Source of the DNA: an uncultured virus (IMG/VR IMGVR_UViG_3300035675_000006)
Lineage: Duplodnaviria > Heunggongvirae > Uroviricota > Caudoviricetes
Direction: 5' to 3' (one strand)
DNA length: 64,000 nucleotides
IMG/VR virus record: IMGVR_UViG_3300035675_000006
Shown here: positions 1 through 53,941 of the stretch, piece by piece
Position numbering within the stretch: position 1 is the stretch's first letter
How the letters are laid out: every line of letters begins with the position of its first letter
Notes under the pieces: model-generated
The model's database searches: none
What the model was told of the DNA's origin: nothing
What the model saw: the letters and a program-made list of their open reading frames with translations, nothing else
Program-made: the position numbers and the translations under genes

Positions 1-2730
1 GCTCTTCTTCTTCAGAAAATCACACCCAATACTGAAGCCGTCTACAAGTGGTTCACGGAGACACGTCAGATCGAGCCAGGAATTCTTCCTGATTTTGGCG
101 TAGGTGCGTACGACCGTGATCAGCTCGAAATGAAATACACGCGTCCCGTGCTGGAAAAATACGGTCTTTGGGCTGAAGGAGCGTACGCTCACTCGATCAT
201 ATTCTTCTACCACCTCTCTCCCAACACCATTTCACATCGCTGCAAACTCAGGCAAATAAACGGCACGTCTCGAGACTGCATGTTCATCGGAACAACCCGG
301 TTCCAGAATGAGACAGGAATCTTTGGTCTCAATCGCTGGCAGCACATGATCAATGCTGAAGCGACAAAAGACGTGTACCTGCTCGAAGGCGAAACAGGAA
401 CGCTTCAGATGCAGTCTGCTGCCTGGAGAGCGTTCAGCAGTGCGAATTACCTTAACGTCATAAGCCGAAGCGGTGTCGGTGGTTTGAACGACAGCACTGT
501 ACGCATTCTGCGAGATGTAGGCATCGAAGCAATACACCTGTTCCCTGATAACGACGCCGGCGGACACGACATGATCACGTCCGCACTAAAGCTCATAGCA
601 CCGCTGCCTATTTCCGTGATCTGGCCCGCGGATTACCAGAAAGGTCAGGATCCGGATGATTACCTGAAAGGCAAATTCTCCACAGGCGGCGTAACGGTTA
701 TTCAGGCGACACTCAAAGGTCTGGTCACCTCTAAATATTTGCTGGCTGCATGGCTGGCAGACAGGCAATTGGACGAATACCAGGCCAACCCAACCGATCC
801 GATCGTACTCCAGAAAACACGGAACATGATCGTGGAGGCAGCTGCCCGAACAGCTCTTGAAGGCATGGAGCTGGATGACTATGTACATCAAATCCAGAAA
901 GTCCTGCCTCAGTTCACGCGTGAAAGCCTGATATCTGAAATGCGTAAATATCAGGCAGGTCACCGCAGAGAATTCAAAGTTGGTCCAGGTGTACGCATTA
1001 TGCGTTCCAACGACGAGTACATGATGGCTGTCACCGAGAAATCACAAGATGGTCCTATTCTTAAGTGGCGTAGCATCCTGAACATGACGATCACAGTCAA
1101 CAAGATGGTTCTTAACGGGGACGGAAGCGAAGCTTACAAAGAAGTCACTCTCCGTCATGCCGGAAAGAATAATCCATCAATCATTTACCCGTCACACCTG
1201 GAGGACCAGAATTCATTCATCAGTTTCCTGGATAAAGCCTATCCTGGAAAATTGAACCACAGCGACGACTTCAAGAAATTCTACCGGCAGATAATAAACC
1301 AGGACAATTACGACGCGCCGCAGGTATATGCATTTGACTCGTTCGGGTACAGAGACAAAAACAAGAAAGACGACCCGTACGAATACCTGAGTCCCAGCGT
1401 CATAATTTCTGAAGGCAAGGTCCTGCCGAATACCAAGTACATAGCACATATCCCGCAGAACCAGCCGTGCGAGCTCTACGATTTCATCCTGGCTCGCGAA
1501 GAGCTGCTGATCAAACAAGTCAATGAAGCCATAGAACTGATCATGGAGTGCCTGCTTAAAATACACGTCCCGTCAGTAACCTACCCGTTGCTGGCATTCG
1601 TGGCAGGTACGTTCATCGACACGCTGCTGGGCAAATCACACGGCAATTACATTCTGGCGCTGCTGGGCCGGTACCAGACAGGCAAGAGCAGGACTGCTCA
1701 GGCATTCCTGAATTTCGCGTGTAATGCAATGCCTGGTGACGGCAAGAACTGCATCGCCGTGTCCAGCACGCTCAACGCATCGGAAAAGGCGTTCCACCAC
1801 GTGTGTGACGCTCCTGGTCTTCTGGACGATTTGAAGTCCGTACACTTCCGGATTTCAAGCATTGCTACAGCCCTGCTGCAGCTGATCCAGAATCACTTCG
1901 ATCGCAAAGGCAAGAGCCGGCTGACACGTGAGCTGGGATTCAGGCAGGCATTCCCGTCACGCTGCGGTTTGATCCTTACGGGTGAAGCCATGCCTTCCAA
2001 AGAAGGCAGCTTCAGTTCGCGCATGCTTAACGTGAACGTGCCTCCTGGCCAGTACAATTCAAGTCTGGCGAAACAGTTCGACGAAAACAGACACCTTCTC
2101 CGCATCTTCACTCCGCATTACATAGCCTACACGCAACGCCTTGAGAAATTCCCCGAACCGCAGTTGATACTTCCGCCCAACATATCTTCAGACCGAGCGT
2201 TCTTCTGCGCCAAACGAATAGGTTGCGGCCTGCGCCTGTTCCTGGACTTCTGCGTGCAATGGCCCGGATCGCCCATGTCACAGAAGAAAGCAGACGACAT
2301 CTGGCAGCAGTTCCAGGTGGTCCTGCCGTCGCTCATCGAAGAGAACGTGATCGATACCCAGGCCAGTGACGACGAACACAAGTTCCTGTCAGCTCTGGCA
2401 CAGATCATCCAGTCTGGAGAAGGCGGGTACGATGATTCCGCCAAGGGCATCAAGATCGGATACCTGGAAGGTCAGACGATTGTCCTGTTCCCCGACATCG
2501 TCATTACCATAGTTAAGCGCTATCTGAGTAACATGGAATTCGACAAGACACAGCTCTACAAGAATCTCAAGCACCTGGGTTATATCTACGACAGCAAGAC
2601 CGTTCGCGATCCGGCGTTTATCAATCCCGACAAAGGCATGGTTAACCGCGGCAGAGCGTGGGTAATGGATAAGCTGAAACTTGAAGAACTACTCGGAAGA
2701 GTAGAGGCTCAGGGTGGGCAAGAAACATGA
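1..2730 (+). CDS. DNA primase (Toprim)-helicase fusion, 5'-truncated by window edge
   Basis: Toprim motifs LLEGE and FPDNDAGG, DPDD; C-terminal P-loop GRYQTGKS and LLDD; frame open from base 1. Confidence 0.8.
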   Translation, partial: ALLLQKITPNTEAVYKWFTETRQIEPGILPDFGVGAYDRDQLEMKYTRPVLEKYGLWAEGAYAHSIIFFYHLSPNTISHRCKLRQINGTSRDCMFIGTTRFQNETGIFGLNRWQHMINAEATKDVYLLEGETGTLQMQSAAWRAFSSANYLNVISRSGVGGLNDSTVRILRDVGIEAIHLFPDNDAGGHDMITSALKLIAPLPISVIWPADYQKGQDPDDYLKGKFSTGGVTVIQATLKGLVTSKYLLAAWLADRQLDEYQANPTDPIVLQKTRNMIVEAAARTALEGMELDDYVHQIQKVLPQFTRESLISEMRKYQAGHRREFKVGPGVRIMRSNDEYMMAVTEKSQDGPILKWRSILNMTITVNKMVLNGDGSEAYKEVTLRHAGKNNPSIIYPSHLEDQNSFISFLDKAYPGKLNHSDDFKKFYRQIINQDNYDAPQVYAFDSFGYRDKNKKDDPYEYLSPSVIISEGKVLPNTKYIAHIPQNQPCELYDFILAREELLIKQVNEAIELIMECLLKIHVPSVTYPLLAFVAGTFIDTLLGKSHGNYILALLGRYQTGKSRTAQAFLNFACNAMPGDGKNCIAVSSTLNASEKAFHHVCDAPGLLDDLKSVHFRISSIATALLQLIQNHFDRKGKSRLTRELGFRQAFPSRCGLILTGEAMPSKEGSFSSRMLNVNVPPGQYNSSLAKQFDENRHLLRIFTPHYIAYTQRLEKFPEPQLILPPNISSDRAFFCAKRIGCGLRLFLDFCVQWPGSPMSQKKADDIWQQFQVVLPSLIEENVIDTQASDDEHKFLSALAQIIQSGEGGYDDSAKGIKIGYLEGQTIVLFPDIVITIVKRYLSNMEFDKTQLYKNLKHLGYIYDSKTVRDPAFINPDKGMVNRGRAWVMDKLKLEELLGRVEAQGGQET

Positions 2731-5477
2731 GCGGTTCCACAAAACCGATGATAAGTCTGGACACCAAAATCAAGATAACAGAAACAATTAACGATTACCC
2801 TACGCTGAACAAAACTGCCGGTTGCGAAGATTGCCCGTACGAAAACAAAGGACGCAAGTGTACCCAGTGGCCGTTGCTTAACGGCTGCGATGTGATGGTC
2901 CTGGTCCATCAGGCAAGCGAAGGCGAGCCTGCTTATTCAGGGCCTTACGGCGGTCAAGCCAGATACTTCGAGTACCTCAAGAAAACCATCCAATACGTGA
3001 AGGCGCACCGGAAAGACGCAGCCCTGGTAAGTTTCGGATTCGCGTATGCCGTGGCCTGCAGCGTCGAAAAAGGCAAGACCTCCTCAGTGGCGGCCAAACA
3101 ATGCGGAAACCTGTTATGTGAATATCTGAGCCGGGACATAGATCCTGTCAAACTCCCCAAGGTGATAGTTGCCATGGGTCTGATGGCCGCAAAGGCATTG
3201 GGTGAAACCAAGCCCATGACTGACCTGCGCGGGAATATAATTCTCAAGAAATTCGGCAAGCACGAGATACCTGTAATTTGCACGTACGGTTACGAGGACT
3301 TGTTTGTCGATTACGGCGAAAAACAGGTACTCAAGAACACACACTTGATCAGCACCATGATGATCGACTTCAACAAAGCGATAGATGTCCGGAACAAGGG
3401 CTACAAGCGCGTTGACCTGGTGGACCTGAAGAAGCGCCTGAAATTCCCCGGCGAGATTGACACGATCGCGCTGCTTACCAATCTGGAAAACAACAAGCTC
3501 CTGACGGCTTTCGACATAGAAACCACGGGATTAAATCCCAGAGCCGAAGACGCCGAGATAACCATGATATCCCTGGCATGGGGCCCTGAACCTGAACAGG
3601 CCTGTTGTATAGATCTCGGGAACCCGTCAGGGACCCTCCTTGAAGCCGTCAAGAAGTTCCTGGTGTCCGACACGCCGAAGATAGCACATCACGCCAAATT
3701 CGATATCGGGTACATCCTGTCCAAATGGGGAATACTCGTAAAGAATCTGGTCGGTGACACGATGCTTTGCCAGTACCTTGTAGACGAGAACCGCGTCGGA
3801 GAAGAAGAGAAACGTCACAAAGGCGAATACACGCTGAAGAAACTTGCCTGGGACTACGAGCCTGAATTAGGCGGATACGAGATGGATTCAGGCGTCGGCA
3901 CGTTGATCAAGCAGGGCAAGATCAAAGAAGCCGACCACGGGCAATTAATGCTCTACGCGGCATTGGATGCCCTGGTTACCTGGCGCCTGTACCGCAAACA
4001 AAAGCGTGCCTTGAACGATCTGCCTATTCTGGGTACTGATGCAGAAATACAGGCCGAGTTTGTGGCGCGCGGCAAGAAAGTCACGCCTTTATATTTACTA
4101 AGTAAAGGCTTGATGGCAGACGCTGTGTACGCGCTGGTCAATCTGGAAACAGCAGGAATGTACGTTGACCTGCCATATGTGAAGCAGGTGGCGTCTACTC
4201 TTGCCAAGCAAGCTGAAGAGCTTGGTAAAGAAATACACAACACGGTTACAGTGGATTTGCCCGATACTCTGCACAGGAAACCTGACAGGGGTAAAGGCAA
4301 GAAGCCGCCTGAATTCAATATCAATAATCCCGCGCATCTGAGATGGTTCCTGTTTACGATACTCGGCTTAAAAGGCGTCAAAGTAACAACTAAAGGCGCT
4401 CAGTCAGCTGATGCTGACGCGCTAAAGCAGCTCAGCGGACAACACCCGATCGTGGACAAGATCCTGACCTGGCGAAAGATCCAGAAGCTGGACAGCTCTT
4501 TCGTCCAGAATATCCTGGACATGACGGACAAGAAAACCACACGGATCCATCCGCACTTTAAGCTTGAAGGGACTGTAACAGGCCGGTTGTCCTGTTCTGA
4601 ACCGAACCTGCAGCAGGTCCCCAAGAAGATGGGTAAGTTCAACGTCAAGAAAATGTTCGGTGCACCTCCGGGACGCATACTCCTGTCGGCTGACATGAGC
4701 CAGGTCGAGGTCGTAGTTCTGGCCTGCTATGCTCCTGACGAAAGCCTGCGCCAGGCAATCAGGGATGGCCTGGACCTGCACTGCTACTCGGCATCCAAGA
4801 TATACAATATCCCTTACGAAGAAATGTTCCAGAAAGGCAAGGTCGACGAAATACCTGAGTACGAACAGAAGCGCTCCCGTGCCAAGCGTGTTACTTTCGG
4901 GATTATCTACGGCATTACGAAATACGGCTTGAGCGTTCAGATCAAATCTACTCCGGACGAGGCACAGGACTTGATTGATAAGTTCCTGGCTCAGTTCCCT
5001 GGCTGCAAAGAATACATAGCTGAAACACACAAGATGGCTGCTACGCAAACGTTCGTAACTACCAAGTTCGGGCGCAAGCGCAGACTTCCCATGCTGCTTC
5101 TAATGCCTGATGACAAACGTGCATTACGTCAGGCTCAGAACGCACGTATACAGTCAACAGCCAGTGATCTGACACTTACGGCTATCACGCGGCTCAGCCG
5201 CGAACTGCCTGCACTTGATGCACGCCTGGTCTGCACAGTCCACGACTCCATACAGGCTGAATGCCCTGACAAGCCTGAGAGTGTCACAGCCGTGTCTGCG
5301 CTCATGAAGGACATCATGATTATAAGGCCCATGAAAGAGCTGGATTGGATAAAAGTCCCGCTGAAAATGGACCTGAAAGTCTGTGCTTCATGGGGTGAGG
5401 AAATGAAGCTGGACGAGTACTTAAACCGCTATGCCTGGATGATAGAATCGGATAATCTGCCAAAAGATTGGAGCTAA
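2727..5477 (+). CDS. polA: Family A DNA polymerase with N-terminal uracil-DNA-glycosylase-like domain and 3'-5' exonuclease
   Basis: CEDCP and PKVIVAMG (UDG family 4-like); DIETTG, HHAKFD, YAALDA (exonuclease); TGRLS, DMSQVE, RAKRVTFGIIYG, VHDS (PolA motifs). Confidence 0.93.
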   Translation: MSGSTKPMISLDTKIKITETINDYPTLNKTAGCEDCPYENKGRKCTQWPLLNGCDVMVLVHQASEGEPAYSGPYGGQARYFEYLKKTIQYVKAHRKDAALVSFGFAYAVACSVEKGKTSSVAAKQCGNLLCEYLSRDIDPVKLPKVIVAMGLMAAKALGETKPMTDLRGNIILKKFGKHEIPVICTYGYEDLFVDYGEKQVLKNTHLISTMMIDFNKAIDVRNKGYKRVDLVDLKKRLKFPGEIDTIALLTNLENNKLLTAFDIETTGLNPRAEDAEITMISLAWGPEPEQACCIDLGNPSGTLLEAVKKFLVSDTPKIAHHAKFDIGYILSKWGILVKNLVGDTMLCQYLVDENRVGEEEKRHKGEYTLKKLAWDYEPELGGYEMDSGVGTLIKQGKIKEADHGQLMLYAALDALVTWRLYRKQKRALNDLPILGTDAEIQAEFVARGKKVTPLYLLSKGLMADAVYALVNLETAGMYVDLPYVKQVASTLAKQAEELGKEIHNTVTVDLPDTLHRKPDRGKGKKPPEFNINNPAHLRWFLFTILGLKGVKVTTKGAQSADADALKQLSGQHPIVDKILTWRKIQKLDSSFVQNILDMTDKKTTRIHPHFKLEGTVTGRLSCSEPNLQQVPKKMGKFNVKKMFGAPPGRILLSADMSQVEVVVLACYAPDESLRQAIRDGLDLHCYSASKIYNIPYEEMFQKGKVDEIPEYEQKRSRAKRVTFGIIYGITKYGLSVQIKSTPDEAQDLIDKFLAQFPGCKEYIAETHKMAATQTFVTTKFGRKRRLPMLLLMPDDKRALRQAQNARIQSTASDLTLTAITRLSRELPALDARLVCTVHDSIQAECPDKPESVTAVSALMKDIMIIRPMKELDWIKVPLKMDLKVCASWGEEMKLDEYLNRYAWMIESDNLPKDWS

Positions 5478-5479
5478 GC

Positions 5480-7087
5480 ATGCCATACTGGGCTGACTCT
5501 GCACGCAAACATGAAGTCCACGATGAGGGCCGCTTGGCACGCATCCTGGAATTTGTGAAGCTGAAGGGTCAGCCTCTCACATTCAATTACCACCCTTTCC
5601 TGCCGACCATTTACAAGTCGCCTCTTACAGACTTCATGTTGATGGCCGGCAGGCAGGTGAGTAAAAGCACGACTCTTAGTATTCTAATCAGTGAGGAAAT
5701 GATGTCGCATCCGTACTTCAGCATCAACTATCTTACGCCACTGAAAGAGCAAACGGCACGGTTCAGTACCATGTACTTGAAACCGATGCTTGAAGGCTCG
5801 CCTGCGATCAAAGACATCTTCATGGGTTCCAGTTCAGAACAGAACGTGTTCCGTAAGCAGTTTGTCAACGGCGCCGTCTGCAACTTGCAGTACGCTTTCC
5901 TGGATGCCGAACGTATCCGCGGCACGCCTGCAGACCGGACAATGTTCGACGAAGTGCAGGACATGTTGTGGGAGAACTTGCCGGTCATCAAAGAGTGCAT
6001 GGGTTTCTCGAACTACAAATGGGAAGCTTATACAGGCACCGCCAAGACTCTCGATAACACCATAGAGAAACTGTGGCAAACCAGTACTCAGCGTGAATGG
6101 GTCATGAAGTGCGTGCACTGTGATACGCACAACGTACCTGCTGAGCCCTGGATCCATAAAATGATCCGCGAACGGGGCTTCTGCTGTTACAAATGCGGCA
6201 AGCTCCTGAATGTCGCCAATGGCGAATGGGTCATGTTCAACAAGAAAGCCTACAGGGACGGGTTCCATATCCCTCAGGTAATTGTCCCTAAGAACGTTGA
6301 TCCGAACGCACCCATGGGTTGGGCCAAGATCTGGCAGAAGAAACAGGAATACCCTGTTGGTAAGTTCTGCAACGAGGTCCTGGGTATTTCATACGACACA
6401 GGCGGCAGGCTCATCACACTTTCTGAAATCAAAGATCAGTGTTGTAAAGATTATGAAATGTGCACTACGCGCCCGGTTGATAATTACTGCAAGCATTATG
6501 TGATCGGCGTTGACTGGGGTATTTCTGCGCAGACCAGCTACACTGTAGCCGTTGCCATGGGCATCATGCCAGCAGGTACCGTGAAAGTCTTTGCCGCGGT
6601 CAAGTTCCTCGGTACGGACATTATGGAACAAATCAGCCAGATCGTGCATATGGCCCAGGCATTCGGCGCTGACTTGATATGTGCGGATTTCGGTGTCGGC
6701 TATACCAACAACCAGATCCTTCGACAGAATTACGGCGGGCGCGTAATGGAATTCCAGTACGTGCGCCAGCGGGCATTCCTGAAGTGGGATGCTCCATCCA
6801 AGAGATATATGCTCAGCCGCACGGCCAGCATGAACATCCTGTTCATGAACATGAAGGCGGGCATGCTGCATTTACCGCGGTTCGAAGAAATCGAACCTTT
6901 CGTCAAAGATATCTTGTCAGTCTACGAGGAAGTCGTGGAGACATCAGGATCGACTATCAAGGTCTTCCTGCACACTCCTGACATCCCGGATGACTTTGTA
7001 CACGCATTGAACTTCGGATGGGTAGGTCTTCGCAAGCTTGTGAATGACCCAATCCTGTCCCTTGAAGTAGGAGAGTCAAGTGCCTGA
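5480..7087 (+). CDS. terL: Terminase large subunit (GpA-like)
   Basis: AGRQVSKST Walker A, FDEVQD Walker B, two CxxC pairs, GVDWG and DDFVHA nuclease motifs. Confidence 0.85.
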   Translation: MPYWADSARKHEVHDEGRLARILEFVKLKGQPLTFNYHPFLPTIYKSPLTDFMLMAGRQVSKSTTLSILISEEMMSHPYFSINYLTPLKEQTARFSTMYLKPMLEGSPAIKDIFMGSSSEQNVFRKQFVNGAVCNLQYAFLDAERIRGTPADRTMFDEVQDMLWENLPVIKECMGFSNYKWEAYTGTAKTLDNTIEKLWQTSTQREWVMKCVHCDTHNVPAEPWIHKMIRERGFCCYKCGKLLNVANGEWVMFNKKAYRDGFHIPQVIVPKNVDPNAPMGWAKIWQKKQEYPVGKFCNEVLGISYDTGGRLITLSEIKDQCCKDYEMCTTRPVDNYCKHYVIGVDWGISAQTSYTVAVAMGIMPAGTVKVFAAVKFLGTDIMEQISQIVHMAQAFGADLICADFGVGYTNNQILRQNYGGRVMEFQYVRQRAFLKWDAPSKRYMLSRTASMNILFMNMKAGMLHLPRFEEIEPFVKDILSVYEEVVETSGSTIKVFLHTPDIPDDFVHALNFGWVGLRKLVNDPILSLEVGESSA

Positions 7088-8306
7088 GATACAGTTGAGT
7101 GAAGCCGGTTTCCGTTTTGACAAAATAACACTTCCTGATTTCAGCAAGCAACCGCAACAGATCCCTCCATTGTTTGACCTTTACTCGGTGGCTTACGCCA
7201 TCGGTGTGGCCCCCAAGACACTTACCTATTTGCTCAAGGTAGATAAGGTGGTCATGGCCAAAGGCAACAAGAAGGTCAACAAGTACAACTTCGTCAAGAA
7301 CAGCCTCTACCAGGATGTCAGCGTGAAGATTGACATCAAAGAACAGCAGGCAAAGGACGGGATGTACAAAGAGATGCGTATCCCGAAGAAAACACCCGGT
7401 GAATTCCGGATTCTTCACGACCCGCATCCCCTGTTGAAATACGTCCAGAGGCAGTTGCTTGAACGCATCCTGACCAAACTGCCACTACCTGAGTACGTCA
7501 CCGGGTTCATGAAAGACGTGAGCATCACCGACACTGCCAAGGTCCATGTTGACAAGGAAGTGGTTTGTTGCGTGGATATCGCGAACTTCTTTCCGAGCAT
7601 CAAGCAACGCATGATCCAGGATATGTTCATGAGCATGGGATGGCCTATGAATGTCTCGAGGATCATGAGCGAACTGTGCACGTACCACAACTTCGTTCCA
7701 CAGGGCGCACCGACAAGTCCTACGATCAGTAATCTGATAGGACATCACCGCTTCGACAAGTCAGTTAAGGCCCTGGCTGATCAGAACGGCTTCATCTATA
7801 CACGCTACGCTGATGACCTGGTGTTCTCCACGGATCGTACGGATACCAAGCACACCGGCGAAGTAGACTACTTCCTGAACAAAGTGGAAGAAGTCATTCG
7901 TAATTCAGGATTCAAAGTCAGCACCGACAAGACCAAGATCATGCGTCACGGCAGCGCACAGATGGTCCTGGGCCAGAGTGTGCGCAATGAAACACCTACC
8001 CTTCCTGGAAAGAAATATCGCTTGCTCAAAGCCATAGTGTTCAATAGTTTGCACCACGGCCTTGAGTCTCAGGCAAAACGTTCCAAGACTGACGTGAATT
8101 CTTTTGTCAGATCGATCAAAGGTCACCTGAACTTCCTGCGGAACGTGGATCCGGTAAAATACGGCAAGTTGGCCCCTATGTTCGAACTGGCTCAGGTTAA
8201 TGCCGGCATGACTCTGTCCAATACGAAGGTCATGAAAAAGTGGATCAACGTTCAGGGTGGCCCTGCTCCCGTGGTCGAAGTCGAAACAGCCAAAAAGAAA
8301 AAATAA
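7080..8306 (+). CDS. Retron-type reverse transcriptase
   Basis: IPKK..R, region X-like TAKVH (NAxxH), DIANFFPSI, PQGAPTSPTISN, YTRYADD, region Y-like VLG (VTG). Confidence 0.92.
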   Translation: MPEIQLSEAGFRFDKITLPDFSKQPQQIPPLFDLYSVAYAIGVAPKTLTYLLKVDKVVMAKGNKKVNKYNFVKNSLYQDVSVKIDIKEQQAKDGMYKEMRIPKKTPGEFRILHDPHPLLKYVQRQLLERILTKLPLPEYVTGFMKDVSITDTAKVHVDKEVVCCVDIANFFPSIKQRMIQDMFMSMGWPMNVSRIMSELCTYHNFVPQGAPTSPTISNLIGHHRFDKSVKALADQNGFIYTRYADDLVFSTDRTDTKHTGEVDYFLNKVEEVIRNSGFKVSTDKTKIMRHGSAQMVLGQSVRNETPTLPGKKYRLLKAIVFNSLHHGLESQAKRSKTDVNSFVRSIKGHLNFLRNVDPVKYGKLAPMFELAQVNAGMTLSNTKVMKKWINVQGGPAPVVEVETAKKKK

Positions 8307-8476
8307 TGCTCAAGGTGGATACGGCCTTCCAAGAGTACATGGTTATGTGGGCGGTACGAAAACTGCTAGAGACCAATCGCAGTTCGCGCAATAAAATACT
8401 CAAACTGAACGTAGATAAATATCCGGGTGGGCCACGCCAGCTGGCCTCTGATCTTTTCCACATATACCCAGGATAA
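8306..8476 (+). CDS. 56-aa protein translationally coupled to the RT
   Basis: TAATG stop/start overlap with RT; MLKVDTAFQEY...FHIYPG. Confidence 0.55.
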   Translation: MLKVDTAFQEYMVMWAVRKLLETNRSSRNKILKLNVDKYPGGPRQLASDLFHIYPG

Positions 8477-8479
8477 CTA

Positions 8480-8649
8480 AAGCAGTCTTTCAAAGCGTTA
8501 CGCTTTGATGATTCCATTCCTCCACACCGGAATTAATGGCAGAGTGCTTCAAATCGTTTGCCCGTTGATACGACGGGAAGTATAATGCCTTCGGCAACTG
8601 TCGGTTTGGGAGGCGCGCCAAAGCGCTAGCCTGGGTGCTAAGAGAGGAT
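8480..8649 (+). ncRNA. Retron-like msr-msd units, cluster A (2 units: 8480-8549, 8553-8649)
   Basis: AAGCA-G-TCT pairs with AGA-G-TGCTT; ATC-G-TTT pairs with AGA-G-GAT; hairpins TCAAAGCG-TTA-CGCTTTGA and CCCGTTG-ATA-CGACGGG. Confidence 0.7.
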
Positions 8650-8652
8650 CAC

Positions 8653-9081
8653 ATGCCACTGCTAAATGAAGTCACGCAGGCCATGATAGACACGGCACTC
8701 GTCCTACCTAGCAGAGGCCTGGTATGGGTGCCTGCAAACGGTCAAATAGTCTATCGTAAGTTCGTTGGCTGCTACGTGTTAAATAAAGCCCGTGATCCAG
8801 ACACGGGTCTCGAAACAGATTCATATTGGGTTGATAACGAAAATATGAATCTAAATGATCTGGTGACCAATTGTGTCTGGTTACCTTCGCCAAATGAAAT
8901 ACGTGATTTAGCTACAGCGTTGACTGCGCCTTCATATTTCCAGAGTTTATGCCAAGCACGTATTTGTCCTGACCAGTGGAAATGCGAATACAGCATTGGC
9001 TTATTCGGCTTCGGAACAACACCTTGGGAATCTGAATTCTATATTCTGGACAAATACATAATCGGGAGGTGCACGGCATGA
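8653..9081 (+). CDS. Hypothetical protein
   Basis: ORF with GAGG RBS. Confidence 0.6.
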   Translation: MPLLNEVTQAMIDTALVLPSRGLVWVPANGQIVYRKFVGCYVLNKARDPDTGLETDSYWVDNENMNLNDLVTNCVWLPSPNEIRDLATALTAPSYFQSLCQARICPDQWKCEYSIGLFGFGTTPWESEFYILDKYIIGRCTA

Positions 9082-16186: not shown

Positions 16187-16551
16187 GGGGGTGCACAGGT
16201 TTCGACGGATTTCGTGAACACCGAGTTGCGTGCCGAGGTGGTTCGGAGGCCTCGTTAAACACCGGACAACGTCTCAACTGCCAAGAACATTGTTCGCGGC
16301 AATTTCGGTCTCCAGACCGGAACTCTCGCTGCCTAACCGGGAGCTAACCAAAAGCTAGGCACTTCTCACTGAGGCTTGGTAGGTGAGAAGGAAGACGTGA
16401 CGTGTACAAGCTATCGCTGATGAATCAGCTAGGTCTTGCCCAGTCGTGTAGTTATCTGGGTAATACTGAAATCTCTGAAACTGCACTACGCACGTAGTAG
16501 CTCTGTCGGATCGACTTCTGGACGCGGGTTCGATTCCCGCCACCTCCACCA
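16187..16551 (+). ncRNA. ssrA: tmRNA
   Basis: GGGGGTG..GGTTTCGAC 5' end, T-arm and CACCTCCACCA 3' end; tag frame 16280-16336 AKNIVRGNFGLQTGTLAA*. Confidence 0.95.
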
Positions 16552-16627: not shown

Positions 16628-16704
16628 GGACGGGCATGAGGGTTCGAGTCCCTCTCGATGCCGCTGTGAAGCGTCTTGATCATTCAATTGGATAGGACCC
16701 GTCC
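16628..16704 (+). ncRNA. Permuted tRNA-like (YrlA-like) module
   Basis: GGACGGG/CCCGTCC closing stem; T-arm GAGGG-TTCGAGT-CCCTC lies before a D-loop-like AATTGGATA. Confidence 0.6.
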
Positions 16705-16712
16705 ACTTAAGT

Positions 16713-17209
16713 TTTGGTTAAGTACCTGTCACAGGTACGCGAGACGTGACCAGAGTAAACTACGCTTCCGCTCCGCTCGTTTCACTACGTTCCACTGCGC
16801 TGCGCTCCGCTCCGTTTACCCAGGTCAGAGATGTACAACAGAGCAAATTCAGATTGGTTAAGTACCTGTTACGGGTACACGTTACTTAGACCGAAGTCAC
16901 TCCGCTACAGCTGCGCGTGCTTCGCCGCGTCGCTTCCGCTTCGTGACAGGGTCTGTTCTATGTCAGAGCAACTTCAATTTGGTTTAAGCATACGCCACGT
17001 ATGCGCGAGACAAGACCACCGGGTCCAGGTTCCGTTCGTTCGTGTGTTCCCACTCACTCACTTCACCTCGACCCTCCGGTCTCATCAGTAACATAGCAAA
17101 TTAATTTAGTTTACTCCTGCCACGGGAGAATGTAGCATTTGGTCAGCGCCCAATGCGAATCACGCTCTTGAAATTTTTGAAGAGCTGATATCAGGGCCAA
17201 GAAAGTAAA
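16713..17209 (+). ncRNA. Retron-like msr-msd units, cluster B (4 units: 16713-16847, 16852-16973, 16977-17101, 17105-17209)
   Basis: Terminal pairings with G-G apposition; hairpins GTACCTG-TCA-CAGGTAC, GTACCTG-TTA-CGGGTAC, GCATACG-CCA-CGTATGC, CTCCTG-CCA-CGGGAG. Confidence 0.75.
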
Positions 17210-18695: not shown

Positions 18696-18712
18696 CTGGC
18701 GCCAGCTACACA

Positions 18713-19391
18713 TACAGTTTCTGCTCTTGTCACGAGAGCCTGATTCTGCACGTGCTGCGCCGTGCGGCACATGTCGACGACTTCGAGAGATTCCCCGAAG
18801 TCCTAGTATTCGAGTACTAGTCCTCAATATTGAGTTAATTACTTGAGAGTACTAGTACATCATAAAGTGTACCAAGGATCCTAGGCGCTGGTGTGCACGC
18901 CAGCGTTAGTAGCAGTCGCTTCTGTGTCACGCAGAACTGTTTACCGCGTCCTGCGGCGCGTTTTCTACACATGTTATGTATGTAGTAGAAAATGTTTGAT
19001 ATGCTGTATTGCAATCACAACGTGCTTTAACAGTTTTTCTGCGTTACGCAGAAATGCATGCTGCGTCCTTCGGCGCGATGCCCCGGTCAGTCCAGTAGGG
19101 CCAGTAGATCCCGTGGCACCAGTCGGTCCTGTAGCACCCGTCGGACCGGTCACCCCCAGTAAATACAAAGTGTTGTAATAGTTCGTTCTGCGTTACGCAG
19201 AAATGCTTTAGGTGTCCTCCTGCGTCGTCCACCAGGAGCTGTAGGCAAAAACGCCTACAGCCGCCTACAGCCATCAAAACACATAGTATTTCAATCGTGG
19301 TTTTCTGGATGTTACGTCCAGGAGAGACGTGACCTTCGCAGGTCGAAATTAACAAGTTCCAAGCACGACACCCCGCCTGCGCGCGAGCACG
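18713..19391 (+). ncRNA. Retron-like msr-msd units, cluster C (5 units: 18713-18871, 18911-19026, 19028-19175, 19177-19290, 19296-19391)
   Basis: Terminal pairings TACA-G/G-TGTA, AGCA-G/G-TGCT, TAACA-G/G-TGTTG, AATA-G/G-TATT, CGTG-G/G-CACG; triloop hairpins such as GCTCTTG-TCA-CGAGAGC and TTCTGCG-TTA-CGCAGAA. Confidence 0.75.
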
Positions 19392-19431
19392 CGTGTGAGA
19401 AACCAGAGAGCACTTTAACAGGAGAGAGAAC

Positions 19432-19737
19432 ATGGCTGCAGTACCTGCCCCGGAAGAGTTTACTTTGATGTTAAAGCCATCTGAGATGGCTGCACTTTTA
19501 ACAGTTATTGGCACATCGCCAATGCTCACTCGAAGTAATAACAACGCGAAATTTGTCCAAGACGTTGACAAAGAGTTGTCTCGGTATTACACCCTAGCTG
19601 AGCTAGGTGTTGTATCAATGGGTGCAGAAAACGAAACGGCTACTGTTTGCGTTAACTTGTTCGAGCAGTTCCAGAGACTTGTTAGGGCCAAGATGGAGGC
19701 AACAAAAGCAAAACTATGTCTACCACTCAAGTCCTGA
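19432..19737 (+). CDS. Hypothetical protein
   Basis: AGGAG RBS. Confidence 0.6.
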   Translation: MAAVPAPEEFTLMLKPSEMAALLTVIGTSPMLTRSNNNAKFVQDVDKELSRYYTLAELGVVSMGAENETATVCVNLFEQFQRLVRAKMEATKAKLCLPLKS

Positions 19738-24046: not shown

Positions 24047-24141
24047 GAATGCGGATTCAAGTGACGTGCTGTAACTGTAAGCACGTTATTGACTACAGGA
24101 AGAAAAGAGATAAATAATTCCTGTAGGAAGAGGGTTCAATC

Positions 24142-24363
24142 ATGGGAAGACGACCAAGGCCGTTGCCTATAAGGCCAGAAATCCAAGACAAAGTAGTACC
24201 TGACCAGTTGTACTTGGTCTTATTTAAACCACCTGGTGAAAAAGAAAACTATCCACCCCACGCATTTGCATATGTGAGAGAAGAGGAACGCGAGCTAAAA
24301 CTCGCGTTTTTGCTTTCACATGGATTCAAATGTGTGAAGCGTGAGTACAGATTAGCCAGATAA
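24142..24363 (+). CDS. Hypothetical protein
   Basis: GAGG RBS; its stop codon abuts the first array unit. Confidence 0.55.
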   Translation: MGRRPRPLPIRPEIQDKVVPDQLYLVLFKPPGEKENYPPHAFAYVREEERELKLAFLLSHGFKCVKREYRLAR

Positions 24364-26578
24364 CAGTTTTTCTCCTGTCACGGGAGAATGAACAGTGTGT
24401 GCTGCGCCACGTTTACCACCCACGTGGCCAGTCGCGATCGAGAAGTCAGAAAGAGAGTGTTACAAAGTTTTCGGTTACCTGCCTGTCACGGGCAGACGAG
24501 AAGTTGCGCAGTTGTCATGCGCAGTAGAACTGCAGAGCGAATAAACATGGTCTAATTCCCGTCACGGGAATTTGCTAGTTGTGTGCTCCGCCACGTCCCG
24601 ACGGCGATGATCATGAAGATCTCGCGAGACGCGGCAATAAAGCATGACACGATCAGCCCACCTGCTGGAGGTGAGCTCATCACAATAAACAAATTGGTTT
24701 TAGCTGTCTGCCACAGGCAGCTGATAGTTGTGTGCTCCGCCACGCACGCACGGTACCTCGTGCACGTACGCGGGCGGACGGAGTCAGAGCAATATTCAGC
24801 TCGATGATCCGGATGGCCATCAGCGCTGAAGAATTACAGAGCAATTCAGATCGGTTTAAGCTGCTTGTTACGGGCAGCTGAAAGGTGTGTGCTTCGCCAC
24901 GATTGCCCGCAGGCGCAATCCGATTGCGTCGCCGAGCAATGCATCCAGGGCCTGGCGAAACATCAGAGCGATAAAGATTGGTCCTACTCTCGGTACGAGA
25001 GCATGGGATGTGTGTGCTGCGCCACGGTCAAGACACGAACCCGAGGTCCTGAGCCGGCCGGGCAGCCATACTTAAAGCAAAGCAATTTACTGGTCTTTAC
25101 CCGCTACGGGTAAATGTTGGTTGTGTGCTTCGCCACAGCCGGACACAGGCGGACGTCGACCTGGTCCAGGTTATGAGATCAGAGCAGTTTCTCCTGGCTA
25201 GTTTTTAGTCTCTGTCACGGAGACAAGCCACATGCCTGCGGCCCGGGATCCAGGTCCTGGCGCCCTGAGGCCTCGCGACCGATCGATATCACTCGACGAC
25301 GTCTCGAGCTCAGCTGGAGTACTTTTAGATAATAAAGTAGCTTAACGATTTTGGTTTTACTCTCGACACGAGAGTGTGAGATGCGTGTGCTGCGCCACAG
25401 TGCGGGCGACGCTGCAGGGCCCGGGAGGCCTTATCGATAACTCAAAGCAAAAACAGATCGGTTTTCTGTCTGTCACGGACAGACGCTTTTCGTGTGCTTC
25501 GCCACGAATTGATGGAGCGTCTCCAGGATCCTGGGGACCCAGTCAAGAATACAGAGCGATTCAATTCAGTTTAACTCTTGTTACGAGAGCTTGCTTATCG
25601 TGTGCTTCGCCACGAATCTGACGGATAGTTTGTCAGACCACACCCAGCTGATGTCTGGGCGGAGTGGAATGCAAAGTGAAACAGATTGGTTTTAGCTTCT
25701 GATACGGAAGCTTGTTTGCTGTGTGCTGCGCCACGTTGTCAATTCTGCGAAGTTCCTATTTTGTTCCTGCAGAATTCCTGCGCCGCGGCGCCGGCGGATA
25801 ATACAGACACAGAGCAATTCAAATGCGCAGAGTGTAGCCATCCCGGTTGGCCCAGAGACGTACGGCTCTGGTGATATCGAGAATGGTTACTCTCACATGT
25901 TGGTTCTTTCTTCCCGTCACGGGAAGACGAAGCCGTTGGCCCCACCCCAACTTGGGACCACGTTTCTCCTATGAAAAGAAGGTCGTAAGTTTCATCGATC
26001 GGAGTACCTAGTCTCGAGGGGTCGTTCGGGAGTGATTCAGTTAAGCTTCAGTTCAACACCCCGGGACGTGATATTGCCTCGTGCCGCGGCAGGTCGGTTC
26101 GAGAGTCTGTCTGGTGGCTTACGATTTTCATAACCTGGTGGTCGATCGCCGAGTTATGGATTTCGGGCGCCAATAAGACAGCATGTTTTTGCCTCGAGGG
26201 AAAAGTGTCTCCTCAAGGAGACAGAGATGTGTCTTCGAGGAGATCTGCTCTCTCAATAGGAATGCTAATATGGATCTCGAGAGAAGTCCACTTTTCCGTG
26301 AAAGTTCCTGGAGACCAGGTTCTGTAAGTCCTTAATGGGACTGGACTTAGTTTTTGAGGTGTTCGAGGGAAAGTACGTATTGGTCGCCGGAGCTAGAAAA
26401 ATAGGTTCGAAGATTAAGCTTCGGATGTATACACAGAGCAACTTAAAGATTGGTCTTTCTGTTCGTCACGAGCAGAAGAAGTTCGCGTGCTTCGCCGCCC
26501 GGATAATTTACCGGGTAGCCCGGACCCACATACGTCCGAGCCTCAGGCGCCATGGCATGCAAAATGCACAAAGCAATT
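24361..26578 (+). ncRNA. Array of 14 retron-like msr-msd units, cluster D
   Basis: Units start at 24361, 24470, 24546, 24692, 24850, 24976, 25089, 25196, 25349, 25456, 25565, 25684, 25899, 26448. Each has a 5' arm plus G, a G-NNA-C hairpin, usually GTGTGCT(C/T/G)CGCCAC, a unique payload and a complementary 3' arm. Confidence 0.85.
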
Positions 26579-26660: not shown

Positions 26661-27056
26661 ATGGCGGCTCATCAAATTGTCCGTGAGGTTAGAAATCTCA
26701 ACGGATACAAACAAGTTCGGGAAAAGGTCGTTTCACTTTTCGCTCCAGGGGTTGACGATGATAGTTCAAAATACTACATCGTCGGATCTACCTGGCTGCG
26801 CATAACCGGAACGATCAGCGAGATGTACGTTTGTAAAACGTCTACCCGCGGTGCTGCGTCCTGGACAATGGTATCCCCGTCCAGCATAACAGGTCCTGCT
26901 GGTGCTCCGGGAGGCGCTGTTGGGCCTACAGGTCCTGCATTAACAGGACCGACAGGACCGACCAGCTTGATTACAGGTCCGGAAGGCGAACAAGGTCCGA
27001 CAGGCGTAACAGGTCCGACAGGCGTTCAAGGCGAAATAGGCCCGACAGGTGTTTAA
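26661..27056 (+). CDS. Collagen-like (Gly-Pro-Thr) repeat protein
   Basis: AAGGAG RBS; GPT repeats; paralog of next gene. Confidence 0.8.
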
Positions 27057-27097
27057 TCTCCGTTAACCACGGCTGATAATAAAAGGAGATTAAACTC

Positions 27098-27487
27098 ATG
27101 GCTGCCCACGCAATAGTTAGAGAGGTTCGCAACCTGAACGGGTACAAACAGGTTCGCGAATCCGTAGTCAGTATCTACGAGCCTGGTGTGGATGACGATG
27201 TCAAGTCATACTACACCCAGGGCTCTCTGTGGCACAGGATCACTGGGACAATCAATACGATCTATGTCTGCAAGTCGCCTACACTGGGAGCTGCAACATG
27301 GTCATTAATTTTCCCAACGTTAGTCGCTGGACCAACAGGGCCTATCACAGGTCCTACAGGTCCTAGCTACTATCTGGTGACAGGCCCTACAGGTGCCACA
27401 GGCCCTACGGGTGCCATAGGCTCGACAGGCCCGCAAGGCACGACAGGACCGCAAGGCGAGATAGGTCCTACAGGTCCTGGTCCGTAA
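27098..27487 (+). CDS. Collagen-like (Gly-Pro-Thr) repeat protein, tandem paralog
   Basis: Shared [21 protein letters not shown]-terminus. Confidence 0.8.
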
Positions 27488-28889: not shown

Positions 28890-29219
28890 GTGGAAGATCC
28901 CAACAAGCTCCAACGTGATGTTTCTCTTTTGCTCAACGAAAGAGAGATGGTTGTGATTACAGCACGGGACATTTACTGCGCAAGTATCAGGGCAGGAAAT
29001 GGCTCGTCTGTTGAAGCAGCCGTTGATGTCGCTGAACAGATCGTGACCGCTGTGAACCAGAAATACGCTGAGCGTCTCAGCGAGGCCGAGGAGAAGTTTG
29101 ACACCGCGGTCGAGGAACTGCAGAATCTCAAGAAGAAGATGATGGAGGGCATGAGCCAGCAGCAGCAAGGCAAAATTCTCCGGGTACCGGGTTGCTCGGG
29201 GTTAGAATGCGGCCACTAG
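28890..29219 (+). CDS. Hypothetical protein
   Basis: AAGGAG RBS, GTG start. Confidence 0.65.
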   Translation: MEDPNKLQRDVSLLLNEREMVVITARDIYCASIRAGNGSSVEAAVDVAEQIVTAVNQKYAERLSEAEEKFDTAVEELQNLKKKMMEGMSQQQQGKILRVPGCSGLECGH

Positions 29220-47994: not shown

Positions 47995-48819
47995 ATGGCT
48001 GACGGTCAGCCTGATCTCGATTTCAAAAGAGACATTTACGAAAAATACAACAGACAAGTATGCTGCAACTGCAAAAGATATCACTGGCTCATTCGCCGTG
48101 AATCAGCCTCGCAAATGGACCTCAGCCAGGATGTCTGGTGCATCCTGTCCCGACTGGCAAACTTTTCCTACGAACCCGATAGAATAGGGGGATATATCAA
48201 GAAAAGCGCGTACCATGTGTGCTTGAGATCAGGATCCAGATCTCAGATCATACGCATTCCTAATCACAAATACTACAGATTATGTAAAGCCAACTTGAAC
48301 TATCTCCCTGAAGAAGAAGCACAGCTGTTGCTTTCAAAGCCTCGTGACAGATTCGTAATGCCGTTGACTGACAATATAGACATTCCTGAAGAAGATCCTG
48401 AGATGTATAACAGAGGCATGTATCGTCTGAAAGACGTGCTACCTGAATTCATAAAGAAGCTTTCTCCCCAACAGCAGTTGGTACTGGCCTTACGGTTTGG
48501 TCTTGGGGATTTGCCTGAACAAACCATGGAATACATAGGTAAAATACTAGGGCGCACCAGAGAATACGTTCGTCAGATAGAAGAAAAAGCCGTACGCAAT
48601 CTACGTCAAAAACTTCTAGAGTCAGGTATTCTAGATGAGGATGAACACGCGCGATTATCAAAGATACCTCATCAAAAATGTTCTTATATGCTTAACTCTA
48701 CTACACCGTCAAAAGCCACTCGCCCTGATGAAACACCTGTTCCCCATGGTGTGAAACACGTTAGTTCGAAAACTCTTGGCCAAAAGCTATGTCATATGAA
48801 AGGGAGGCTATATGGGTAA
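47995..48819 (+). CDS. Sigma-70-like factor (region 4 HTH)
   Basis: IRIP; LALRFGL..TMEYIG..LGRTREYVRQIEEKA. Confidence 0.8.
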   Translation: MADGQPDLDFKRDIYEKYNRQVCCNCKRYHWLIRRESASQMDLSQDVWCILSRLANFSYEPDRIGGYIKKSAYHVCLRSGSRSQIIRIPNHKYYRLCKANLNYLPEEEAQLLLSKPRDRFVMPLTDNIDIPEEDPEMYNRGMYRLKDVLPEFIKKLSPQQQLVLALRFGLGDLPEQTMEYIGKILGRTREYVRQIEEKAVRNLRQKLLESGILDEDEHARLSKIPHQKCSYMLNSTTPSKATRPDETPVPHGVKHVSSKTLGQKLCHMKGRLYG

Positions 48820-52619: not shown

Positions 52620-52703
52620 CTTCCAGAACATCCCGGTGCATACAGCTCTTGGTAGAGAGCTGCGCAAAGCGATCGAGCAACTGAACAAGAAGAAAGGCAG
52701 CTG

Positions 52704-53051
52704 ATGATCACGGAACCCCATACAGGCCAGCAACTGTGGACGACAGCGCCCATTGGCCAGGATCTGGCTTATGGTGACAAGTTCTCTCCACCCTGGTGCG
52801 GAAAAGCGCACCAGATAAGCCAGATGTACAGACAGCTTACGCTGGTGCAGGACGACAACTCGTCGTTGATGATAGGCTTCGACCAGTTGTATGCTACAGA
52901 AGAAGAAGCCTACCGGGCTTACGCGCAGCTTCTGCGCGAACGCATGAAAGTTGATCGCGTGAACTTGTCATTCACATTGGACAAACTGCACAAGATGCGT
53001 GCAAGAGAACGCAAACAGAAATACCGTAAAAAAATTAAGGAGGCGTCATGA
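52704..53051 (+). CDS. Hypothetical protein
   Basis: ORF track. Confidence 0.55.
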   Translation: MITEPHTGQQLWTTAPIGQDLAYGDKFSPPWCGKAHQISQMYRQLTLVQDDNSSLMIGFDQLYATEEEAYRAYAQLLRERMKVDRVNLSFTLDKLHKMRARERKQKYRKKIKEAS

Positions 53052-53629: not shown

Positions 53630-53898
53630 AAATGCACAACCCTGACGTTGCACGCAACAAGCCCAAGCATCTGTCATATCATTTGCAAGATAGATATCTG
53701 ATACGCAATCCCTGTCCTATATTTATTAGCAATGCGCTATTCACATACAATGACTATGCTGGATTACTTCAATGCAACAGCCAGCCTTGGATGCAGGAGA
53801 TGCATAATTGCGTCTGCTGCGGTCCGGAAGAATACTTAGCTAGCGCAGAGCTAATCTTTAACGTAATCCAGGCGCGCAGAAAACTCGTCTCAGAATAG
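53626..53898 (+). CDS. Cys-rich paralog (family 2)
   Basis: CCGPEEYLASAELIFN. Confidence 0.55.
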   Translation: MKMHNPDVARNKPKHLSYHLQDRYLIRNPCPIFISNALFTYNDYAGLLQCNSQPWMQEMHNCVCCGPEEYLASAELIFNVIQARRKLVSE

Positions 53899-53941
53899 GC
53901 GGCGGCATCTACGTGAGATAAAACATGTCAAAGGAGAAGAG

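Follow-up and report, generated by a model that had tools for sequence, protein, structure and literature searches.

A retron-clade reverse transcriptase adjoining members of a dispersed hairpin-unit family in an uncultured phage: hints of a multi-template module

Retrons are known as bacterial anti-phage systems that combine one reverse transcriptase (RT), one ncRNA and a toxic effector, and their hallmark is a branched msDNA primed from the 2'-OH of a conserved G. What might an RT of this kind do in a phage genome, where it is followed by a small gene and by two short hairpin units that recur in distant arrays? The question is raised by a 64,000-nt stretch of DNA (IMG/VR record IMGVR_UViG_3300035675_000006; hereafter the window), in which an earlier note, made from the letters of the sequence, had described a coupled 56-aa ORF and two minimal ncRNA units as the link between an RT and remote clusters. 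Here, this observation was partly confirmed and its interpretation partly supported. The reading we prefer, to which we give a probability of about 0.4, is that one RT and a small partner serve many template RNAs bearing a common handle. As read from its sequence, the RT-unit assembly hints that phages may put reverse transcription to a use not described so far.

The window was read as a large lytic-type phage, uncultured and of wetland origin; it is unrelated to T4, and among isolates its terminase comes closest to that of Salmonella phage Arash (32%). No lysogeny gene was found among the 38 ORFs scanned, and a phage sigma factor gene occupies positions 47995-48816. The stretch is carried by four DNA runs from one wetland/freshwater study, and by no RNA run among the sequencing runs listed. 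A gene of unknown function, the DNA polymerase, the terminase, the RT and orf56 follow one another in an overlapping operon, the GTG start of the RT overlapping the terminase stop by 8 nt. Because it is located inside this replication and packaging operon, the RT looks like a core phage gene, not an inserted defence island. The RT locus comprises the following features:

7080-8306, + strand: RT of the retron clade, 408 aa (Pfam, NCBIfam, PADLOC, alignment)
8306-8476, + strand: orf56, conserved basic protein of 56 aa (ORF call, homologues)
8469-8517, + strand: unit 1 (model R1, 14.6 bits, E 0.015; hairpin class)
8540-8598, + strand: unit 2 (model R1, 18.8 bits, E 8e-4; hairpin class)
8558-8586, + strand: sigma-70-type promoter-like site, TTGCCC-17 nt-TATAAT (consensus match, 10/12)
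8599-8652, + strand: payload or leader of unit 2, with GGCGCGCC, AGCGCT and GCTAGC, then AAGAGAGGA (sequence, palindrome count)
8653-9081, + strand: orf142, conserved phage protein (homologues at 79, 71, 66 and 53% identity)

By its HMM matches, the RT is a member of the retron clade. Pfam RVT_1 matched it at 3.4e-21, NCBIfam retron_St85 at 206 bits (7e-61; under the family cutoff of 235) and the PADLOC retron RT models at 4e-70 to 1e-47, the top ones being RT_XIII (4e-70), RT_III-A (4e-68) and RT_II-A (1e-65). Judged by its YADD motif (residues 243-246), the enzyme is catalytically intact. The retron classification of Mestre et al. 2020 (PMC7736814) describes retrons as an RT, an msr-msd ncRNA and an effector, with a NAXXH motif in region X and a VTG triplet in region Y of the RT. 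In the phage RT, the corresponding residues are TAKVH (152-156) for region X and VLG (296-298) for region Y, A153, H156 and G298 being invariant in a 13-sequence alignment of relatives; the X and Y residues most conserved in retrons (H, G) are kept, and N and T are substituted. Beside the RT, no effector was recognised in the terminase, orf56 or orf142 by Pfam, NCBIfam, PADLOC or PHROG, in line with the earlier note. A phage-encoded RT, a small accessory ORF nearby and a non-coding template also recall DGRs; however, the models that the RT matches are of the retron type, and no DGR family is among the matches listed. A DGR was rejected for want of a template/variable repeat pair: when the four unit regions were compared with the window by blastn-short, only two unit-to-unit matches, of 15-19 nt, came up.

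The ATG of orf56 (8306-8308) overlaps the RT stop (TAA, 8304-8306) in the sequence TAATG. Its homologues P0123 (80% identity), P0125 (59%) and P0126 (52%) are each 56 aa long, making a family of four members of uniform length. The overlap and these three homologues uphold the proposed coupled 56-aa ORF: on sequence grounds, orf56 is a real, conserved gene, translationally coupled to the RT. The longest contigs with homologues measure 5902 nt for RT, orf56 and orf142 alike, and 2342 nt for both RT and orf142; these matching contigs indicate conserved synteny of the three homologues. Synteny was the check that the earlier note had proposed, its reading being staked on RT homologues that keep the ORF and the downstream units; as regards the ORF it stands, since the homologues retain orf56. 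An AF2 model of the protein shows helices at 7-26 and 42-53 (mean pLDDT 66), and Pfam, NCBIfam, PADLOC and PHROG assigned no family either to orf56 or to orf142, for which the protein atlas gave no lead. The predicted complex of the RT with this candidate cofactor scored 0.02 against a mark of 0.32, a value that does not speak on binding either way. Coupled small ORFs of a consistent family were not detected behind 30 more distant phage RTs; only one of these RTs (L201) has an overlapping ORF, of 46 aa and with no evident likeness to orf56 by eye.

The spacer after orf56 (177 nt) holds two diverged members of the unit family. As had been noted, AAGCAGTCT (8480-8488) starts 3 nt past the orf56 stop (8474-8476). 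Unit 1 has a degenerate 5' box overlapping the last orf56 codons and a hairpin (HP1a, 8490-8508) of eight Watson-Crick pairs with a TTA triloop closed by G-C, without a second hairpin. Unit 2 displays a 5' box (CAGAG..CAA..GTTT), a hairpin of seven pairs including one U.G with an ATA triloop (HP1b, 8561-8577) and a short HP2-like hairpin, GCC-TTC-GGC, at 8587-8595. The closure of unit 1 that had been called perfect did not hold up: 8 of its 9 pairs form around a central G.G mismatch, and the duplex (-9.9 kcal/mol, z -0.96, equalled by 18% of shuffles) is not beyond chance. The MFE fold of the spacer does not use it, and model R1 places AGAGTGCTT (8541-8549) in the 5' box of unit 2, not as the 3' arm of unit 1. 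Taken as a whole, the spacer is not more stably folded than its shuffles (z -1.04 on the + strand, -0.01 on the - strand). The palindromes reported for the second unit are present (GGCGCGCC at 8612-8619, AGCGCT at 8622-8627, GCTAGC at 8625-8630), but their local number is not significant, with 4 palindromic hexamers against 2.9 expected over 8477-8649 (156 of 500 shuffles reach 4) and 3 against 1.4 in the payload of unit 2 (70 of 500 shuffles). The promoter-like site overlaps this unit, HP1b lying between its -35 and -10, and is one of only six sites scoring at least 10/12 on both strands of the window. From this site to orf142, a leader of about 60 nt is predicted, with a Shine-Dalgarno-like AAGAGAGGA (8640-8648) ahead of the ATG at 8653. 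Unit 2 probably doubles as promoter and leader for orf142.

The unit family counts 25 copies, every one on the + strand; two are located by the RT, and the other 23 make up three non-coding clusters at a distance of 8-18 kb from it:

16698-17138, + strand: unit cluster 1, four units, directly after the phage tmRNA (R1 matches)
18701-19347, + strand: unit cluster 2, five units, their payloads rich in palindromes (R1 matches, hexamer count)
24348-26500, + strand: main array, 14 units over some 2.2 kb of non-coding DNA (repeats, covariation, R1, palindrome count)

All units follow one plan, in which a 5' box precedes a triloop hairpin of 7-8 bp with a G-NNA-C closure (HP1) and sometimes a second hairpin (HP2). 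In the main array, HP2 is usually present; it contains a bulged U and has a UNC triloop, and the variable payload that comes next abounds in perfect 6-bp palindromes. The units there are spaced by 107-262 nt, with no credible ORFs between them. Cluster 1 gave R1 matches at 16698, 16839 (with an HP2 piece at 16912), 16964 and 17092. Contigs of two other runs, X3 and X4, have 28 nt in place of the cluster 2 unit at 19151-19294, a single event whose junction falls at unit boundaries. All clusters end upstream of a + strand gene block. A minus-strand ORF over cluster 2 (19044-19571) was dismissed, as its translation looks like junk, and so was a collagen-like antisense resemblance of one payload, which had no significant match within the window.

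The structure of the units is well supported. Pairing extends to 97.4% of the cells of the 14-unit alignment, compensatory change is seen at 9 of 14 pairs, and covariation scores 0.69, a value that none of 500 shuffles attains (0.27). Two positions each have U.G pairs in 7 of the 14 aligned units, which fits the + strand only and points to a + strand RNA. Hairpins with a stem of at least 7 bp, at most one G.U pair and an NNA triloop closed by G-C (the hairpin class) number 19 on the + strand, where 100 Markov-1 simulations give about 1 and never more than 4, and 18 of them fall within the unit clusters or the RT spacer, where they correspond to 8490-8508 and 8561-8577. The covariance model R1 was built from 14 array units only, the RT-proximal units being left out of its training. 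R1 also matched positions 28903-28968, inside a probable gene and with the triloop absent, at 18.2 bits; in view of this similar score, the R1 score alone is not decisive. The claim of two ncRNA units by the RT is thus sustained in so far as both belong to the array family by R1 and hairpin class, but their reading as canonical retron ncRNAs is not supported. The Rfam search gave no relevant or retron match, and no a1/a2 closure was found, whether in the array units (duplex of the 5' box with the remainder of the unit; 12 units, mean z +0.30) or in the RT-proximal ones (unit 1, z -0.96, 18% of shuffles; unit 2, z -1.47, 7.6%). With no such closure, priming would not follow the textbook retron route.

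The payloads have a second characteristic. The main array contains 75 palindromic hexamers against 33.6 +/- 5.4 expected (0 of 500 shuffles), a 2.2-fold excess concentrated just 3' of HP2, and cluster 2 contains 20 against 11.2 (2 of 500 shuffles); cluster 1, with 4 against 7.1, is not palindrome-rich. Octamers account for 21 of the 75, about 25% being expected from the hexamers, so that the hexamers are not the tips of longer hairpins. With about twice the chance number of 6-bp palindromes in the payloads of two clusters, a product of these units may present restriction-type sites. Two more specific ideas were rejected. A "catalogue" of non-redundant palindromes is not borne out by the 40 distinct words seen among 75, as many as random draws give (39.0 +/- 2.6), and a store of words avoided by the genome has the wrong sign (rho +0.32 with word frequency elsewhere in the window). 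No purging of palindromes was apparent in the remainder of the window (940 observed, 962 expected).

The physical link between RT and arrays that had been proposed is real in that the spacer carries two units of the array family. As a functional link within this window, however, adjacency is weak, since unit clusters occupy about 4-5 of the 25 intergenic gaps longer than 150 nt and would adjoin the RT by chance with a probability of about 0.2. RT relatives of 64-84% are on record. Among RT relatives with DNA examined, the nearest (G001, RT identity 43%, a 72-kb contig rated 63% complete) has no comparable array, its sole repeat being an 18-nt tandem at 14.9 kb. On 82 other phage RT loci (950 kb), R1 gave one match, with an E-value of 0.91, and nothing above 12.7 bits. 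Viral-contig scans by RT and by a 5-member alignment gave no match, and the one metagenome scan, with generic motifs, only RTs of at most 38% identity, of which 80 loci were kept. A motif scan of viral contigs (119 stretches) returned a single match in each of the 80 listed and no array, and was read as chance. No description of such arrays was found in the full text of CC-licensed PMC papers and bioRxiv. Modest backing for the RT link comes from the palindromes of other phage RT loci. A 150-nt window with at least nine palindromic hexamers occurs in 27 of 78 loci, at no more than 800 nt from the RT in 8 of these 27; the 400-nt RT flanks are palindrome-denser than the rest in 44 of 75 loci, several of them near-duplicates (Wilcoxon p 0.01), and in one locus (L277) a polylinker-like stretch lies immediately upstream of the RT start.

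Repeated intergenic hairpins of phages have a known precedent in the PeSLs of the T4-type phages RB49 and phi1, which are promoter plus stem-loop motifs of about 60-100 nt with G-T pairs in their stems and which most commonly place the hairpin between -35 and -10, with a Shine-Dalgarno and an ATG behind it (PMC2839356). The units might be cassettes of this type (promoter with stem-loop attenuator, modular shuffling), with regulatory or recombination functions unrelated to the RT, an explanation that we consider possible though somewhat unlikely. Unit 2, with its 10/12 promoter around a hairpin, its Shine-Dalgarno and the ATG of a conserved gene, reproduces that commonest layout. The units are likewise composite intergenic repeats with a stem-loop and G.T/G.U pairs, and the presence or absence of 19151-19294 between close strains, with its junction at unit boundaries, is what a PeSL-mediated deletion predicts, albeit seen as one event. 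The end of all clusters upstream of a + strand gene block and the phage sigma factor gene also agree with it. Yet the sigma-70-like promoter of unit 2 has no counterpart in the main array, where all 11 units represented in the 14-unit alignment have G as the final letter of the -10 hexamer. PeSLs flank ORFans, whereas the 14 array units have no credible ORFs between them, and only unit 2 and the unit that closes each cluster have a Shine-Dalgarno and ATG 3' of the motif. The unit hairpins lack U-tracts, the phage is not T4-related, and cassettes of this kind require neither the covarying second hairpin nor the 2.2-fold palindrome excess. A reading as N4-type hairpin promoters was set aside; no virion RNA polymerase was found among the 38 ORFs scanned, but a sigma factor is encoded.

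The strand-specific, covarying structure would equally suit stand-alone small RNAs of the phage (sponges, regulators, processing signals), for example cut out of long leaders, bound by some other protein and adjoining the RT by coincidence. The chance of about 0.2 for this adjacency, the missing retron closure and the absence of arrays from G001 despite its related RT are all compatible with such RNAs, but an RNA function alone gives no cause for 6-bp palindromes outside longer hairpins, and in other phage RT loci palindrome-rich non-coding stretches prefer the RT flanks; we regard this explanation as unlikely. A conventional retron for superinfection exclusion, with the spacer as its ncRNA, orf56 or orf142 as an unrecognised effector and the arrays as unrelated elements, appears very improbable. 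The RT is of the retron clade, the trio of RT, orf56 and orf142 is conserved, and temperate phages do carry retron RTs. Against this stand the lack of a1/a2 closure, of a significant fold and of a known effector family, the position of the RT in a replication and packaging operon with no lysogeny gene in the 38 ORFs scanned, and spacer hairpins that are clearly of the array family. The comparison with retrons is a mixed one. The clade, YADD, the H of region X and the G of region Y are common to both, as is a structured non-coding element contiguous with the RT on the same strand. In contrast to retrons, the phage module sits without an effector in the core operon of a large lytic-type phage, its non-coding element is downstream of the RT instead of upstream, its RT reads TAKVH/VLG instead of NAXXH/VTG and falls below the curated cutoffs of named families, and about 25 units over four sites take the place of one ncRNA.

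On the preferred reading, of one RT serving many handle-bearing RNAs, the stretch would be the tail of a phage-borne, effector-less retron-type module, in which the hairpin part shared by the units may be the handle that the RT, perhaps together with Orf56, binds on each of them. A single enzyme would thereby have many RNAs as substrates and would copy their variable payloads, located behind the handle, to short cDNAs, as a "multi-template retron". The cDNA, or an RNA:DNA hybrid, may offer restriction-type palindromes to host DNA-targeting defences, as bait or decoy. Restriction enzymes need duplex DNA, which counts against a bait role for a single-stranded product. In its full form, with a dedicated 56-aa partner, a two-hairpin handle common to some 25 RNAs from four clusters, palindrome-loaded cDNAs as bait, decoy or sensor in counter-defence and priming without a1/a2, this "one enzyme, many templates" retron is unlikely.

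If the RT does not copy the units, they would still represent an undescribed, strongly covarying family of phage RNAs or regulatory cassettes. If it does, phages would be putting reverse transcription to a new use, and the template architecture would be new as well, with many templates under one handle and no a1/a2 stem, of possible interest for retron-based DNA-production technology. Should the counter-defence reading be true as well, retron chemistry would have been turned to phage counter-defence, against restriction enzymes or other DNA-sensing defences.

The window covers part of the genome of a large, lytic-looking and uncultured phage in which the retron-clade reverse transcriptase (RT) is the fourth member of a chain of overlapping genes that opens with an unknown 866-aa gene and continues as follows:

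2727-5477, family-A DNA polymerase
5468-7087, large terminase
7080-8306, + strand, RT ORF (408 aa), starting 8 nt before the terminase stop

Other genes include a dNMP kinase, a ribonucleotide reductase, a helicase, a ligase, a sigma factor, 11 tRNAs (all at 27.5-40 kb) and a tmRNA, while several families of diverged direct repeats at 51480-63200 (D5, D7-D9, D11, D14, D15) point to small paralogous genes arranged as a block. By terminase, the closest isolated phage is Salmonella phage Arash (32% identity), in which the RT is absent at the corresponding place. A sequencing-run search detected the DNA of the window in four DNA runs, all from one wetland/freshwater study, and in none of the RNA runs.

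The RT matched Pfam RVT_1 (3.4e-21) and, best of all, retron RT models (PADLOC RT_XIII, 4e-70; RT_III-A, 4e-68; RT_II-A, 1e-65), with a score of 206 bits against NCBIfam retron_St85 that falls under the curated cutoff of 235. Its YADD is intact. Mestre et al. (PMC7736814) give two retron motifs, NAXXH in region X and VTG in region Y, versus TAKVH and VLG here; the region X H and the region Y G are invariant across 13 RT relatives. Metagenome relatives were found at 84, 74, 66 and 64% identity, and a broader clade at 35-41%.

The earlier note had coupled a 56-aa ORF to the RT, and this is borne out: the last A of the RT stop TAA (8304-8306) is the first A of the ATG (8306-8308) that opens the 56 codons. 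A word-indexed search yielded one homologue of 56 aa (80% identity); when 1.84 billion representatives were searched in full with a profile, two more emerged (59% and 52%), each of exactly 56 aa. With 20 invariant columns and mainly conservative substitutions in this family, orf56 is a real gene, whose product is modelled by AF2 as two helices (mean pLDDT 66). The longest contig is reported alike at 5902 nt for homologues of orf56 (52%), of the RT (84%) and of orf142, the next gene at 8653-9081 (79%), and at 2342 nt for homologues of the RT (74%) and of orf142 (66%); from these matching sizes, not from contig sequence, we infer synteny of the three genes. In L201/G001, which carry the nearest RT relative with available DNA (43%), an overlapping 46-aa ORF lies behind the RT, with no similarity to orf56 evident by eye, and 29 phage RT loci that are more distant showed no consistent small ORF behind the RT.

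The non-coding units of this phage were defined from an alignment of 14, all taken from the distant clusters, which share a 5' box (CAGAGCAA..GGTTT), a hairpin HP1 of 8 bp with an NNA triloop closed by G-C, and a second hairpin, HP2, whose stem of 5-6 bp carries a bulged U and whose triloop is UNC. Pairing was found in 97.4% of the alignment cells (27-58% in slid controls), both sides had changed in 9 of the 14 pairs, and the covariation score was 0.69 versus 0.27 in shuffles, none of 500 reaching it. Two positions carry U.G pairs in 7/14 units, which on the opposite strand would be C.A. Run unfiltered over the window, a covariance model built from these units recovered them together with 9 further cluster units and two RT-proximal matches, all on the + strand. 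Because a match at 28903-28968, inside a probable gene and without the triloop, scores similarly to the latter two, the model score alone was not relied on. A strict hairpin class (stem of at least 7 bp, at most 1 G.U, G-NNA-C triloop) has 19 members on the + strand where ~1 is expected, 18 of them in the clusters or next to the RT. Other phage RT loci, 950 kb in all and searched with default filters, gave no model match above 12.7 bits. The total is 25 units: 4 at 16.7-17.1 kb (cluster 1, immediately downstream of the tmRNA at 16187-16551, Rfam 133.6 bits), 5 at 18.7-19.3 kb (cluster 2), 14 at 24.3-26.5 kb (main array) and 2 beside the RT. Just downstream of the main array are two small ORFs with collagen-like (tail-fibre-like) repeats (26661-27484); the cluster 2 payload 19080-19150 resembles the reverse complement of this repeat, with no significant match anywhere in the window.

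The two RT-proximal units occupy the 177-nt spacer between orf56 and the orf142 ATG (8653), each with one hairpin:

8490-8508, + strand, hairpin of unit 1, 8 pairs, loop TTA
8561-8577, + strand, hairpin HP1b of unit 2, 7 pairs, one of them U.G, loop ATA

Model matches at 8540-8598 (18.8 bits, E 8e-4) and 8469-8517 (14.6 bits, E 0.015), both on the + strand, together with the hairpin class, uphold the proposed kinship with the arrays, and these hairpins clearly belong to the distant-cluster family. The "perfect closure" described for unit 1 (8480-8488 with 8541-8549) did not hold, having 8/9 pairs and being equalled by 18% of shuffles, and the whole spacer does not fold beyond chance.

Palindromes mark the payloads, the variable stretches behind the hairpins, in two of the three clusters. 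Against 500 dinucleotide shuffles, perfect palindromic hexamers number 75 in the main array (33.6 +/- 5.4 expected, 0/500), where there are also 21 octamers (8.7 expected), and 20 in cluster 2 (11.2 expected, 2/500); cluster 1 is not enriched (4 versus 7.1), and two control stretches showed weak or no enrichment. As about a quarter of hexamers would extend to octamers by chance (21/75 observed), the signal lies at 6 bp rather than at the tips of longer hairpins. Palindromes concentrate right behind HP2, and the densest "natural polylinker" of the window, the HP2-less unit 25208-25345, packs 13 different-looking 6-bp palindromes into ~80 nt. Many array palindromes are words that common type II enzymes recognise. 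The sites noted earlier in the unit-2 payload (GGCGCGCC, AGCGCT, GCTAGC) are present, but their excess is not significant (3 versus 1.4 expected, 70/500 shuffles). This result, a diversity at the level of random draws (40 distinct versus 39.0), a positive correlation with word frequency elsewhere in the window (rho 0.32) and a remaining window that is not purged of palindromes (940 versus 962 expected) count against a simple decoy story. The sole word absent outside the unit regions is CGGCCG (0 versus 6.9 expected), found once in the main array (25055). At 25647-25648, two adjacent central changes in run X4 convert CAGCTG to CAATTG, which is weak evidence because two central transitions preserve palindromy automatically.

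Outside the window, 78 viral-contig loci with retron-type RTs 26-45% identical to the clade member P0008 were surveyed; identity to the window RT, measured for three, was 32-43%. A 150-nt stretch with at least 9 palindromic hexamers occurred in 27/78 loci, and in 8 of these its distance from the RT was no more than 800 nt, a zone covering ~13% of a locus. The 400-nt RT flanks were denser than the rest in 44 of 75 usable loci (16.1 versus 13.9 per kb; Wilcoxon p 0.01, inflated by near-duplicate loci). In L277, two hairpins and then ~ten different 6-bp palindromes run up to the RT start codon (5791-6000), a polylinker-like payload in the canonical position of an upstream ncRNA. L206 and L203 (RT identity 32-37%) encode a Cys-rich RT with an N-terminal extension and have arrays immediately upstream of it. 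In L206 (4560-5140), GGAAAGGTAGGC is repeated ~8 times, and behind every copy comes a spacer that forms a hairpin; L203 (5090-5430) has a row of 7-8-bp triloop hairpins.

Whether the RT uses the units has to be weighed against other readings. They might be cassettes like the PeSLs of T4-type phages, which combine a strong sigma-70-like promoter with a stem-loop and mediate modular shuffling (PMC2839356). Unit 2 shares this layout: a promoter-like site, TTGCCC-17-TATAAT (8558-8586, 10/12), brackets HP1b and is followed after ~60 nt by a good Shine-Dalgarno and the orf142 ATG, the commonest PeSL arrangement in that paper. Only 6 sites of at least 10/12 quality exist over both strands of the window. 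Shuffling would also be consistent with whole-unit gain or loss between strains, 28 other nt taking the place of unit 19151-19294 in contigs from X3 and X4, two further runs of the wetland/freshwater study. The array units, however, do not fit: all 11 aligned main-array units have G as the last base of the hexamer in the -10 position, 14 consecutive units lie 107-262 nt apart with no credible ORFs between them, and PeSLs require neither HP2 nor the payload composition. This reading is the main rival, somewhat less probable than our preferred one. A further sigma-70-type promoter-like site (24089-24118, TTGACT-18-AATAAT, 10/12) precedes the main array by ~250 nt, and another lies ahead of a tRNA (29098). 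Small RNAs independent of the RT are unlikely, and a conventional retron with a single ncRNA is improbable.

The "physical link" between RT and arrays stands insofar as two units adjoin the RT, but this adjacency is the only link within the window and would arise by chance with a probability of ~0.2, since the units fill 4-5 of 25 gaps. Full-text searches of CC-licensed PMC papers and bioRxiv preprints, judged by the title and opening of the abstract, brought up no pertinent account of such a phage system. Our preferred reading, to which we give a probability of 0.4, is that the RT, probably together with Orf56, would bind the hairpin handle shared by the units and copy the payloads behind it. 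The canonical a1/a2 closing repeats of retron ncRNAs were not found; thus, if copying occurs, its priming would differ from that of textbook retrons.
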